Part shown: piece after piece, positions 44,098 through 47,606 of the stretch
How the letters are laid out: every line of letters begins with the position of its first letter
Position numbering within the stretch: the stretch's first letter is position 1
Origin: an uncultured Spirochaetales bacterium
Lineage (GTDB): Bacteria; Spirochaetota; Spirochaetia; Sphaerochaetales; Sphaerochaetaceae
DNA length: 64,000 nucleotides
Assembly (NCBI GenBank): GCA_949295125.1
Contig: CASFJV010000052.1
Location: forward strand, 5,686 to 69,685
Direction of reading: 5' to 3'
Notes under the pieces: model-generated
What the model saw: the letters and a program-made list of their open reading frames with translations, nothing else
Told to the model about the DNA's origin: nothing
Databases searched by the model: none
Position numbers and translations under genes: made by a program

Positions 44098-45461
44098 ATG
44101 AGGCTTGCTCCGAAAATATCCTGTATGAAACCCTGGTCCTTATGTGCCGCTGCCACTATTACAGTGTCATTAAGGGTGAATGCATAGTTTCCCCCTGGAA
44201 TGAAATTCTCTCCATCTGCTCTCTTTATGCCGGCAATGATTGCCTTGCCACGGAGATTTACATCCTTAAGTGCCTTATTTAGGTACCTGAAGTCCTCTGC
44301 AATTAAGAATTCATATACCTCAAGCGATCCGTCAAAGAGGGTATGGAGCGTTTCTATCGTCCTTCCCCTTAGATGCCTGACCAGGGTGTCTACTGTGGCA
44401 TTTGTCGTTGAAATAGCCGCATCGATATCAAGATGGGAGGCAAGGGAGATGTAATTGTTGTTCGTCTTTATTGATGATATTACCCTCTTTGCTCCAAGAC
44501 GTTTTGCATATAGTGATGATATGATATTAAGCTCATCATTTTCCGTGACGCTTATGACAAGATCCGTATTGTAAAGCTTCTCATCCTCCCAGGTCGCCTC
44601 ATCTGTCACGCTTGCGTTGATTATCAGGATGTCAGGGAAAATATCCAGGAATTCGCGTGCTATCTTCTCATCCTTTTCTATGAGTGTGACTTTCTTCCTC
44701 TCCTGTGGAGTGAAGGCGGATAGCAGGTAACGCGTTATCCTTGTTGCTCCAATCATGAGGATCTTCCTTATCGTGGAATCATCTACAGGCCCTGAGAGCT
44801 CAGTGAATATGTCCTTGCTCTCCTCTTCATCCACGATGATTGCTATCTCATCACCGGATTTTATTATTGTGTCACCGTAAGGGGTGAAGACCTTGTTCTT
44901 CCTCCTTATTCCTGCAATCACGTACTGTCCGGGAATCTTTTTCCTTGCCTCTATGAGAGTCTTGTCCTTGAACGGGCTGTCCTTGCCTATGGTTGTGGCA
45001 AAGAGCATGAAGTGCGCATCCGGAAATGATATCACATCCTTATATAGTCCGCTCCTGATAATCCCGAGAATCCTGTTTGCTGCCTCCTGGTCCGGGTTCA
45101 CTATGTATGAAATTCCAAGAATCGGGTGATGTGATTCTCCGCCCAGGTAGCTTATGCTCCTGATTGCTGCAATTGTGGTTTTCACCTGCGGAAATTCTGA
45201 TGCGACTATGCCGCAGCTTACAAGGTTTGTTTCATCATTGTCAGTTACTGCGATTACTGCATCTGCATTGCTTACCTGTGCCTCTATAAGCTTATCTACA
45301 TTTGTGGCACTTCCGCAAACGGCCATGCAGTCCAGTTTTGAGACTGCCTGCTGGCATCTTTCAGAGCTGGCATCCAGGAAGATTACGTTCTTGTTTTCCT
45401 CTATCAGGTGCTTGCCAAGACGTAAGCCCCTCCTTCCTGCGCCTATTATCAAAACGTTCAT
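44094..45461 (-). CDS. trkA: Trk system NAD-binding subunit TrkA
   Basis: Two RCK/TrkA-N Rossmann units (MNVLIIGAGRRG and ILMIGATRI), each followed by a TrkA-C segment. 455 aa. Confidence 0.9.
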   Translation of the reverse strand: MNVLIIGAGRRGLRLGKHLIEENKNVIFLDASSERCQQAVSKLDCMAVCGSATNVDKLIEAQVSNADAVIAVTDNDETNLVSCGIVASEFPQVKTTIAAIRSISYLGGESHHPILGISYIVNPDQEAANRILGIIRSGLYKDVISFPDAHFMLFATTIGKDSPFKDKTLIEARKKIPGQYVIAGIRRKNKVFTPYGDTIIKSGDEIAIIVDEEESKDIFTELSGPVDDSTIRKILMIGATRITRYLLSAFTPQERKKVTLIEKDEKIAREFLDIFPDILIINASVTDEATWEDEKLYNTDLVISVTENDELNIISSLYAKRLGAKRVISSIKTNNNYISLASHLDIDAAISTTNATVDTLVRHLRGRTIETLHTLFDGSLEVYEFLIAEDFRYLNKALKDVNLRGKAIIAGIKRADGENFIPGGNYAFTLNDTVIVAAAHKDQGFIQDIFGASLI

Positions 45462-45568
45462 GGCTGATAATTATAATGACTATATAGATGCAGTTCAAGG
45501 TGAGGTATTGTCTGCTATATCTTTTAATAAAAATAAATCATTACATTATAAGCAATTAATTATGAAAG

Positions 45569-45586
45569 TGTATCATAATGACACAT
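45569..45586. promoter_or_regulatory. Dyad repeat TGTATCATAATGACACAT, copy 1 (candidate enhancer/UAS)
   Basis: Exact 18-mer repeated at 45654-45671. Internal dyad TGTnTCAT-A-ATGAnACA. Confidence 0.55.
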
Positions 45587-45653
45587 TCTGGATTTCAGAG
45601 GGGAACTGCTAATGGGGAAAAATGCCCCATTATATGATGGCTGGTTGCACCTC

Positions 45654-45671
45654 TGTATCATAATGACACAT
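45654..45671. promoter_or_regulatory. Dyad repeat TGTATCATAATGACACAT, copy 2 (candidate enhancer/UAS)
   Basis: Identical to copy 1 and 85 bp downstream of it. Its centre lies about 74 bp upstream of the -24 element. Confidence 0.55.
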
Positions 45672-45734
45672 ACAGTAAATGGTATTAAAGATTAAAATTA
45701 TTTAATTTATTATATTATAAAGAAATATAAAAGT

Positions 45735-45750
45735 TGGCACGTCTCTTGCT
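45735..45750 (+). promoter_or_regulatory. Sigma-54 (-24/-12) promoter for the tandem hsp20 genes
   Basis: TGGCACGTCTCTTGCT matches TGGCAC-N5-TTGCW with correct GG-to-GC spacing. It lies about 50 nt upstream of the ATG at 45801 (SD AAGGAGG at 45787-45793). Confidence 0.7.
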
Positions 45751-45800
45751 TATATAAAGGTGTAAGCAAAATTACAAAAGTAAATTAAGGAGGCCCTAAA

Positions 45801-46202
45801 ATGGCAATTATGAAATATCAGAGAAACTACAATGACTTGGACAGTCTTATCGATTCCATCTTTACAGGAGTCAAGATGCCACCAGTGGATGTGAAAGAGT
45901 CAAAAACCGGCTATTCCATCTCTGCTGAGATCCCAGGATACAAGGAAAGCGATATAAGCCTTTATGTTGAGAACCATGTTCTTACAATTGAGGGAAAGAA
46001 AGAAGAGAAGGAAGATGAGAAGAATGGAAAGAAATACCTGATCAAGGAAAGGGTAAGCAGGAACTTCAAGAGAAGCTTCACTCTTCCTGAGGATGCAGAT
46101 GAAGATGGCATCAGCGCAACATTCAAGAACGGTGTTCTTGAGATAGACCTTCCAAGGACTGCAAAGGCAGAGCCGAAGAAGATTGAAGTTAAGGTTAACT
46201 GA
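45801..46202 (+). CDS. Hsp20/alpha-crystallin family small heat-shock protein
   Basis: 133 aa. Alpha-crystallin domain: PPVDVKESKTGYSISAEIPGYKESDISLYVENHVLTIEGKK...FKRSFTLPEDAD...ATFKNGVLEIDLP. Confidence 0.9.
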   Translation: MAIMKYQRNYNDLDSLIDSIFTGVKMPPVDVKESKTGYSISAEIPGYKESDISLYVENHVLTIEGKKEEKEDEKNGKKYLIKERVSRNFKRSFTLPEDADEDGISATFKNGVLEIDLPRTAKAEPKKIEVKVN

Positions 46203-46220
46203 TTTTTAGGAGGAACAGAC

Positions 46221-46622
46221 ATGAGATACTATATAGACAGGACATTCCCGAGCTTAATCGATTTCGATAATTTCTTTAATGACTTCTTTGAATCCAGCAG
46301 CGACAGGTTCCCGCCTGTTGATGTGTTCGAGACAGATGATGCATACGTGATTGAGGCAGAGGTCCCCGGATATAACGAAAGCGATATAAAGATCTACTGC
46401 AAGAACAAGACGGTCACGATTGCTTCTGACAGGGTGGAGAAGGAAAAGGCAAAGTACCATATCAATGAGATTGCACTTCCTGAATTCTCGAGGGGATTCA
46501 CACTGCCTGAAGATGCAGATGAAGACAGCGTCGAGGCATCAAGTGAGAACGGTATTCTCACAATTACAATAAAGAAGAAAGCAAAAGCTGAGCCGAAGAG
46601 GATCGAAGTTAAGATCAACTGA
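46221..46622 (+). CDS. Hsp20/alpha-crystallin family small heat-shock protein (tandem paralog)
   Basis: 133 aa with the same domain layout (PPVDVFETDDAYVIEAEVPGYNESDIKIY...FSRGFTLPEDAD...ENGILTITI). SD TAGGAGG. Confidence 0.9.
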   Translation: MRYYIDRTFPSLIDFDNFFNDFFESSSDRFPPVDVFETDDAYVIEAEVPGYNESDIKIYCKNKTVTIASDRVEKEKAKYHINEIALPEFSRGFTLPEDADEDSVEASSENGILTITIKKKAKAEPKRIEVKIN

Positions 46623-46647
46623 GGCAGATAAGCATCACACACATAAA

Positions 46648-46680
46648 GGGTTCTGAGCAGTGCTCAGGGCTCTTTTTTTT
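46648..46680 (+). terminator. Rho-independent terminator after the hsp20 pair
   Basis: GGGTTCTGAGCA-G-TGCTCAGGGCTC stem followed by T9. Confidence 0.8.
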
Positions 46681-46757
46681 CCCTATTTTCCGCTCTTCTC
46701 TTTTATCTTTTTACAATATCCGCTAAATTGTATTCGTTTTAAGAAGGATCAGGACTT

Positions 46758-47606
46758 ATGTATAGGATATTGAAAAAGGAAAAGCTGTCAAAGGAAGTGT
46801 TCCGATTCACTCTCGATGCTCCCATGATTGCCCGCGAAAGGAAGGCAGGACAGTTCGTAGTAGTGCAGAAGGGTGGAGATTTTGAAGAGAGGATTCCTCT
46901 GACGATTGCTGATGCAGACAGTAAGAATGGAACAATACAGATTGTGTTCCAGGCAATAGGGGAAGGAACCCACAGGCTTGCAATGATGGAGGAAGGGGAG
47001 TGCATTGAAAATGTCCTCGGGCCTCTTGGAAGGCCTACTCATATCGAGAAGTTTGGAAAGTGCGTATGCGTCGGAGGGGGAATCGGAGTTGCTCCGCTCT
47101 ATCCTATAGCCAAGGCCCTCAAAGAGGCTGGAAATGAGATCAGGATAATAATCGGCGCAAGGAATGAGAGCCTCCTGATTGAAGAGGATGAGATGAGAGC
47201 ACTCGATCCTGATCTGATTGTAGTGACAGATGATGGATCAAGGGGCAGGAAAGGTGTTGTCACAGAGCCTCTGAAGGAACTCTGCGAATCATGGAAGCCG
47301 GATTTCGTTGTAACAATAGGACCGACAGTCATGATGAAGTTCTGCGCACTGACAACAGAACCATATGGAATAAAGACAATAGCATCACTGAATACGATCA
47401 TGATTGACGGGACCGGAATGTGCGGCGGCTGCCGTGTCTCTGTCGGAGGAGAGACGAAGTTCGTCTGTGTTGACGGACCTGAGTTTGATGCCCATGAGGT
47501 TGACTGGGCAAACATGATGATGAGGCAGAGGACTTATTCTGACTATGAGAAAGAAGCGCATCACAGGTGCCATCTTGAAAGCGGAATAAAGGAAGGAGAG
47601 GCTTGA
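46758..47606 (+). CDS. nfnA: NfnA-type subunit (sulfide/dihydroorotate dehydrogenase-like FAD/NAD-binding, 2Fe-2S)
   Basis: Colinear by eye with Thermotoga NfnA: AGQFVVV, RIPLTIAD, GGGIGVAPLYP, and MIDGTGMCGGCRV...FVCVDGPEF. Confidence 0.8.
   Translation: MYRILKKEKLSKEVFRFTLDAPMIARERKAGQFVVVQKGGDFEERIPLTIADADSKNGTIQIVFQAIGEGTHRLAMMEEGECIENVLGPLGRPTHIEKFGKCVCVGGGIGVAPLYPIAKALKEAGNEIRIIIGARNESLLIEEDEMRALDPDLIVVTDDGSRGRKGVVTEPLKELCESWKPDFVVTIGPTVMMKFCALTTEPYGIKTIASLNTIMIDGTGMCGGCRVSVGGETKFVCVDGPEFDAHEVDWANMMMRQRTYSDYEKEAHHRCHLESGIKEGEA

Follow-up and report, generated by a model that had tools for sequence, protein, structure and literature searches.

The tandem small heat-shock genes of this uncultured Spirochaetales bacterium, a gut-type spirochaete, hsp20A and hsp20B (hsp20AB), lie behind a sigma-54 enhancer-promoter—a -24/-12 promoter with dyad repeats at fixed distances upstream—which comparative sequence analysis confirms as real and conserved across the spirochaete class. 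We consider it probable that the whole unit works as a sigma-54 operon with a three-dyad enhancer and an enhancer-binding protein (EBP) encoded on contig C47 as its activator. What was an intergenic repeat becomes a regulatory unit with defined parts and a candidate for its activator that can be named, belonging to a putative two-operon regulon in this genome (hsp20AB and an alternative sigma factor) and supplying a candidate DNA motif for the Rrp2 family. The window—i.e., the whole stretch of 64,000 nucleotides that was analyzed—is contig C52:5686-69685 of an assembly (G000) that is 83% complete and has a GC content of 45%. For one protein of this genome, the closest named relatives come from an uncultured Spirochaetaceae bacterium (87%) and a Sphaerochaeta sp. 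(66%).

The hsp20 Genes and Their Sigma-54 Promoter

Which promoter serves the hsp20 genes? The features of the locus, in window coordinates, are listed below.

45470..45498, - strand: sigma-70-like promoter of trkA-trkH-trkH, TTGAAC-17-TATAAT (10/12 matches)
45569..45586, no strand: UAS-1, distal putative activator site, exact 18-mer TGTATCATAATGACACAT (matrix score 22.7 bits)
45613..45629, no strand: UAS-2, weak middle putative site, palindrome TGGGGAAAAATGCCCCA (9.0 bits, rank 45 of 1.96 M positions)
45654..45671, no strand: UAS-3, proximal putative activator site, identical to UAS-1 (TGTATCATAATGACACAT; 22.7 bits)
45697..45733, + strand: conserved A/T-rich element between enhancer and promoter (two conservation alignments)
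45735..45750, + strand: sigma-54 (-24/-12) promoter, TGGCACG-N4-TTGCT, TGGCACGTCTCTTGCT (exact to TGGCAC-N5-TTGCW)
45801..46202, + strand: hsp20A, 133-aa small heat-shock protein (Pfam HSP20, E = 1.3e-26)
46221..46622, + strand: hsp20B, 133-aa paralogue (Pfam HSP20, E = 3.3e-24)
46645..46685, + strand: intrinsic terminator closing the hsp20AB unit (14-pair stem, then a T run)

The second gene begins 18 nt downstream of the first, the tandem pair recurs in relatives, and the two are presumably co-transcribed; a separate nfnAB-EIIA unit lies beyond the terminator. The promoter TGGCACGTCTCTTGCT, with its GG at 45736-37 and its GC at 45748-49 (10 nt apart), is the single exact match to TGGCAC-N5-TTGCW in the whole window. 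Its predicted +1 is at ~45761, 40 nt 5' of the hsp20 ATG (45801), and the SD of hsp20A is AAGGAGG (45787-93). The first-pass annotation had placed a -24/-12 element at 45735-45750, and both its sequence and its coordinates are correct.

With one mismatch allowed, the promoter pattern occurs three times in the window against 2.8 expected, which is chance level, so the promoter call stands on conservation and not on the match alone. The conservation sample comprised 30 hsp20 loci and 30 loci of a sigma gene (described below) from 40 relatives—24 genomes of the genus plus 16 other families. An equivalent -24/-12 element was present 5' of hsp20 in 29 of the 29 usable loci, across 17 families, which bears out the sigma-54 reading first given to this promoter. 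Wherever there was usable upstream DNA, at hsp20 and at the sigma gene alike, the element lay 40-70 nt ahead of the start codon. Conservation extends upstream of the promoter as well: counted from the TGG, columns ~-35 to -2 show it over 56 hsp20 and sigma promoters, and also in an alignment of five species. This A/T-rich element (45697..45733) probably acts as a bend or binds a protein of the HU/IHF type; one protein of the HU/IHF family is encoded in the genome.

Control by HrcA/CIRCE, by HspR/HAIR, by an RNA thermometer, or by a known leader RNA family was considered and dropped, as no matching element or fold was found. Near hsp20 there is no match to CIRCE or HAIR, and the best CIRCE-like sequence in the assembly has 4 mismatches and lies elsewhere. 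No RNA thermometer of the ROSE or fourU type was recognized in the predicted leader (45759-45812), which folds at -5.5 kcal/mol (z = 0.47) with the SD unpaired, and an Rfam search of 45400-46800 gave zero matches. No sigma-70-type promoter was found on the hsp20 strand at the locus. Across the whole assembly, no CIRCE element better than 4 mismatches was seen; the organism may therefore lack the classical HrcA route or have a divergent form of it.

Dyad Repeats Upstream of the Promoter

The 18-mer TGTATCATAATGACACAT had been annotated at 45569 and 45654, 85 bp apart, and exact copies do stand at both coordinates. They are the only exact copies in the 1.96-Mb, 78-contig assembly; the next-best match in the window has 3 mismatches, and 0.12 matches at ≤3 mismatches would be expected there. 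The symmetry noted within each copy also stands, although the form given for it, TGTnTCAT-A-ATGAnACA, is better read as TGTGTCA-N3-TGACACA, a 17-bp consensus from which the UAS-1 dyad (TGTATCA-TAA-TGACACA) departs by 1 mismatch. Among the dyad positions, G2, C6, G12, and C16 are conserved. The NtrC site, TGCACCA-N3-TGGTGCA, has the same 7-3-7 layout.

How are the sites arranged? Measured from the -24 TGG, the centre of UAS-1 is 158 nt upstream and that of UAS-3 is 73 nt upstream (~-184 and ~-99, respectively, counted from the predicted start), in agreement with the enhancer-like distances of ~74 and 159 bp proposed earlier. Counted upstream from the TGG, the dyad centres of relatives fall into fixed slots of 73-78, 113-118, and 154-159 nt, with a period of ~41 bp. 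The first-pass annotation was right about both repeats but had not noticed the weak third palindrome between them, TGGGGAAAAATGCCCCA at 45613-45629; its centre, 114 nt upstream of the TGG, fits the 113-118 nt slot that is filled by a dyad in most relatives, and four sister species show partial conservation of the block. The three sites are ~41 bp apart, or roughly four helical turns, and UAS-3 is the most strongly conserved block of the five-species alignment. Just 5' of the distal dyad lies an A/T-rich block, ATTACATTATAAGCAATTAATTATG (45540-45566). Four sister species conserve it, among them those with a neighbor other than trkA.

A genome scan for the dyad, suggested in the first-pass annotation as a way to define a regulon, located dyads at hsp20AB and at an alternative sigma gene. 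At ≤2 mismatches, TGTGTCA-N3-TGACACA occurs at five positions in the genome, four of which precede the sigma-54 promoters of hsp20 and the sigma gene. A scoring matrix built from 91 sites in relatives, with G000 left out, ranked the two hsp20 dyads and two sigma-gene dyads as the top four genome-wide (22.7, 22.7, 22.3, and 19.6 bits; the next scored 14.7), UAS-1 being tied for first among 1.96 M positions. In the conservation sample, the density of dyads at ≤3 mismatches in the 260 nt upstream was 5.6 per kb for hsp20 and 7.0 per kb for the sigma gene, whereas the remainder of these loci held 0.02-0.04 per kb, i.e., an enrichment of >100-fold at fixed distances from the promoters.

A Probable Second Target: An Alternative Sigma Gene

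The second dyad-bearing target encodes a sigma-70-family factor and lies on contig C47, 3 kb downstream of the kinase, EBP, and dinG genes, with a sigma-54 promoter and dyads of its own. In relatives, the sigma-54 promoter was found at 30 of 30 sigma loci. An ORF of 129 aa (L006:3896-4285, - strand; G000 C47) sits between dinG and the sigma gene. It has no family match and overlaps two of the sigma gene's three dyads, which fall within its 3' end or span its stop codon; on this pattern, it may not be a real gene.

Is this sigma factor RpoS? That identification was rejected, as the tree places the C47 sigma in a paralogous clade. Borrelia-like RpoS and the "B-type" sigma factors group together with support of 100/99, while the C47 sigma falls outside the B-type group, among "A-type" genes that are unresolved among themselves. 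The B-type sigma is absent from this genus. Elsewhere, B-type genes (L201-L210, from other Spirochaetia families) encode proteins of 284-297 aa and all have sigma-54 promoters, with a single conserved palindrome of the GTATA-N6-TATAC type ~100-125 nt upstream—a second type of enhancer. No TGTGTCA dyad was found at these B-type loci. The B-type RpoS orthologues had been considered as a tie between the dyad and Rrp2, and were dropped because they carry this different palindrome.

Sigma-54 Machinery and the Candidate Activator

Does the genome encode what such a promoter requires? The first-pass annotation was correct that neither rpoN nor an EBP gene lies within the 64-kb window—the nearest EBP begins ~700 bp beyond its end—and had advised looking for both elsewhere in the genome, where rpoN and three EBPs were found. 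The rpoN gene on contig C12 is intact (Sigma54_DBD at 151.6 bits in an open frame of 475 aa). The three EBPs, all outside the window, are as follows.

Contig C47: C47-type EBP, REC-AAA+-HTH_8, 455 aa, with a 389-aa histidine kinase adjacent
C52:70390-71700: C52-type EBP, REC-AAA+-HTH_8, 443 aa, with a kinase and an ABC transporter adjacent
Contig C51: PspF-like EBP, 359 aa, beside pspA

The activator, called unknown on the strength of a window lacking any EBP, now has a candidate in the Hk2/Rrp2-type two-component EBP on C47. One clear orthologue of this protein (at least 53% identity) was present in all 41 genomes of a first sample, and orthologues were detected in 196 of 201 genomes of the class. 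Most genomes have its gene and the dyad-bearing sigma gene on one strand, with the EBP 3-8 kb upstream. The five misses yielded no clean negative set for a co-loss comparison. Among them, G073 and G158 have truncated copies, each in a fragmented assembly, and G115 has a diverged copy just under threshold. The remaining two, G193 and G221, are fragmented assemblies; four other genomes of their genus do have the C47-type EBP. The recognition helix of the HTH, GRKTLHRK, is conserved among C47-type orthologues and different in the C52-type paralogue (RTLISK vs. KTLHRK). Synteny, universality, and elimination together lead us to assign the hsp20 dyads, with reasonable confidence, to the C47-type EBP. 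The main weakness of this assignment is that the one experimentally known Rrp2 target does not carry the motif: the B-type RpoS orthologues have the other palindrome in place of a TGTGTCA dyad.

The best-surviving alternative, to which we give a small but real chance, is that promoter and enhancer are genuine but another EBP binds the dyads—either the C52-type or one missing from the assembly. The C52-type protein has the same REC-AAA+-HTH_8 architecture and is encoded on the same contig as hsp20, ~700 bp past the end of the window and ~20 kb downstream of the hsp20 locus. At 83% completeness, the assembly could be missing another EBP, and in G193 and G221 both promoter and dyads are present at hsp20 while the C47-type orthologue went undetected in these fragmented assemblies. 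Against the C52-type protein, however, stands its absence from five genomes of the genus (G004, G005, G014, G021, and G024), at least four of which keep dyads at hsp20 (L022 in G005, L025 in G014, L031 in G004, and L034 in G024); the hsp20 locus of G021 (L024) carries promoter and dyads as well. In G024, which is 94% complete, the EBPs are the C47-type and the PspF-like only, and dyads are found at both hsp20 (L034) and the sigma gene (L126). The C52-type recognition helix differs at the residues given above, no TGTGTCA dyad was found near the C52-type operon, and it is the C47-type gene that is syntenic with the second dyad-bearing target in most genomes.

Other Readings of the Dyads

Could the dyads bind something other than an EBP? 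A stress repressor, or a co-activator working beside an EBP that acts from solution, seems improbable to us, somewhat more so than a different EBP. The precedent for it is rpoS of Borrelia, which requires a second DNA-binding factor (cf. BosR) and no enhancer (PMC3037356, PMC1976401). At hsp20, however, the sites lie at -99 to -184 and do not overlap the promoter, the dyads in G000 are confined to positions upstream of sigma-54 promoters, and CIRCE and HAIR are absent. Moreover, three copies phased at ~41 bp, each with a 7-3-7 layout, form the pattern of dimers of an EBP with a Fis-type HTH, as at NtrC sites.

The repeats might instead regulate the divergent upstream neighbor of hsp20, the potassium-uptake operon trkA-trkH-trkH; they stand 116 and 201 bp ahead of its trkA ATG (45461), and the first-pass annotation had suggested that they could serve it too. 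This is very unlikely. A sigma-70-like promoter stands 9-37 nt before that ATG, at least 71 bp from the nearest dyad, and trkA is the divergent neighbor in only 2 of 30 loci (G000 and its nearest species, G016). The other 28 have a different upstream neighbor, yet their dyads keep their distance to the hsp20 promoter; since trkA is rarely the neighbor and the dyads stay, the dyads belong to hsp20. Chance similarity—an A/T-rich intergenic repeat of no regulatory role—can be practically dismissed, for although the one-mismatch promoter pattern is no more frequent in the window than expected by chance, the 18-mer occurs at this locus only and the dyads are enriched >100-fold at fixed positions over 17 families.

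A Proposed Stress Circuit

What would the hsp20 enhancer-promoter do with the C47 EBP as its activator? The circuit we infer, from transcription start and acting EBP to binding, hexamer assembly on three dimers, and inducing signal, builds on the observed sequence elements, their conservation, phasing, and genome-wide exclusivity, and the presence of rpoN and EBP genes. Its principle (EBP, enhancer, and sigma-54 promoter) is textbook: sigma-54 promoters stay closed until an AAA+ EBP remodels the holoenzyme. Here, hsp20A and hsp20B would be a two-gene operon transcribed from the promoter at 45735-45750, and the enhancer would consist of three 17-bp dyads, two strong and one weak, centred ~73, 114, and 158 nt ahead of the -24 box, with the conserved A/T-rich segment serving as a bendable stretch between dyads and promoter. 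The activator would be the 455-aa NtrC-class response regulator on C47 (REC-AAA+-Fis-type HTH), with its own histidine kinase. Once phosphorylated, the protein would occupy the three dyads as three dimers, which would come together in an active hexamer and loop onto the promoter. It would also switch on the alternative sigma-70-family gene through the same kind of promoter and dyads, making the circuit a putative stress response that couples small chaperones to a second sigma factor. Across the class, small heat-shock genes would be expressed through a conserved sigma-54 route, and not through a system of the sigma-32 or HrcA type. Our literature search found no paper on the dyad motif, on a link between RpoN/sigma-54 and small heat-shock proteins in spirochaetes, or on sigma-54 in Sphaerochaeta.

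Comparison with Known Systems

How does this circuit compare with sigma-54 systems already described? PspF and pspA, likewise a sigma-54 stress operon with a dedicated EBP, are also encoded in G000; unlike the C47 protein, PspF-type EBPs have no receiver domain. The pspA sigma-54 promoters (C51:1694, L008; and C24:8696) carry other palindromes and no TGTGTCA dyad. There are two pspA paralogues, of which the C51 copy adjoins the 359-aa PspF-like EBP and is followed by a gene with a PspC domain; the palindrome upstream of pspA, TAACCA-N4-TGGTTA, is unlike the hsp20 dyad.

Sigma-54 promoters of another kind are found in G000 just upstream of an rlmE/ftsJ-like gene, at a locus that occurs twice in the assembly (C31:45392-45700 and C71:1-330; L199 and L200). 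Two such promoters stand in tandem there, each before a unit of ~75-100 nt with an intrinsic terminator, and the promoters are preceded, at 45-60 nt, by TGTGA-N6-TCACA-like palindromes. A 5' block with CACCTCC (anti-SD-like) is common to the units, which have no Rfam match. They are possibly sigma-54-dependent small RNAs, by analogy with Qrr or GlmY, of which they are reminiscent.

NtrC at the glnAp2 promoter of enteric bacteria offers the closest layout among activators: it, too, is a REC-AAA+-Fis-type HTH protein that binds 17-bp 7-3-7 dyads. At glnAp2, NtrC has several sites on the same face of the helix, 80-200 bp upstream, and these promote oligomerization and looping onto the sigma-54 closed complex. 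The spirochaete system differs in its half-site (TGTGTCA vs. TGCACCA), in its three evenly spaced sites, and in its targets, which are chaperones and a sigma factor instead of nitrogen assimilation genes.

A precedent for sigma-54 control of an Hsp20-family gene had been claimed for ibpB of Escherichia coli, and it is real: PMC2831329, citing Kuczynska-Wisnik 2001, describes ibpB as transcribed by the sigma-54 holoenzyme. The E. coli sigma-54 promoter is located within ibpAB, where it works alongside a sigma-32 promoter and has no defined activator or enhancer (PMC2831329), whereas here one sigma-54 promoter stands ahead of both hsp20 genes and has a putative enhancer.

The Hk2-Rrp2-RpoN-RpoS cascade of Borrelia burgdorferi (PMC1976401, PMC3037356, PMC12472547) is similar in pairing an NtrC-class EBP with an adjacent kinase, and the C47 EBP, like Rrp2, appears to drive a sigma-70-family gene through a sigma-54 promoter a few kilobases away. 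In Borrelia, Rrp2 is essential, central to virulence-gene control, and apparently enhancer-free (PMC1976401, PMC12472547); it neither binds nor needs the DNA upstream of rpoS (PMC1976401). The present system differs in its putative enhancer of three dyads, Borrelia Rrp2 being enhancer-independent (PMC1976401), in having hsp20 as a predicted direct target, and in using a sigma factor from a different clade than Borrelia RpoS.

Are the two EBPs the same protein? Genus g33 of our dataset ("Borrelia-like", an inferred label) has 25-29% GC, a main contig of 0.9 Mb, and a single EBP, which is the genome profile of Borrelia. That EBP and the C47 EBP are reciprocal best matches over their full length at 51.6% identity (40% for the paralogue), and the C47 EBP is most likely the Rrp2 orthologue, g33 presumably being Borrelia. 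The g33 rpoS gene has a sigma-54 promoter and no dyad within 300 nt, which fits the enhancer independence of Rrp2 (PMC1976401). The recognition helix of the g33 EBP (L174-L177) reads KTLHNK where all other orthologues have KTLHRK, a change that coincides with the dyad-less rpoS and sets HNK in the Borrelia-like helix against HRK in the others.

To our knowledge, a binding site for Rrp2 has never been found in Borrelia, and no DNA-binding specificity has been described for the Rrp2 family. We regard it as an even question whether the Rrp2 family had TGTGTCA-N3-TGACACA as its ancestral enhancer, in which case the original job of Rrp2 would have been the response to proteotoxic or heat stress, through small heat-shock proteins and an alternative sigma factor, and Borrelia would represent a derived state. 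On this scenario, the Borrelia lineage would have lost both its hsp20-type targets and the enhancer, exchanged Arg for Asn in the recognition helix, and re-used Rrp2 from solution at rpoS. Such a history would explain both the absence of an Rrp2 binding site and the persistence of the DNA-binding domain.
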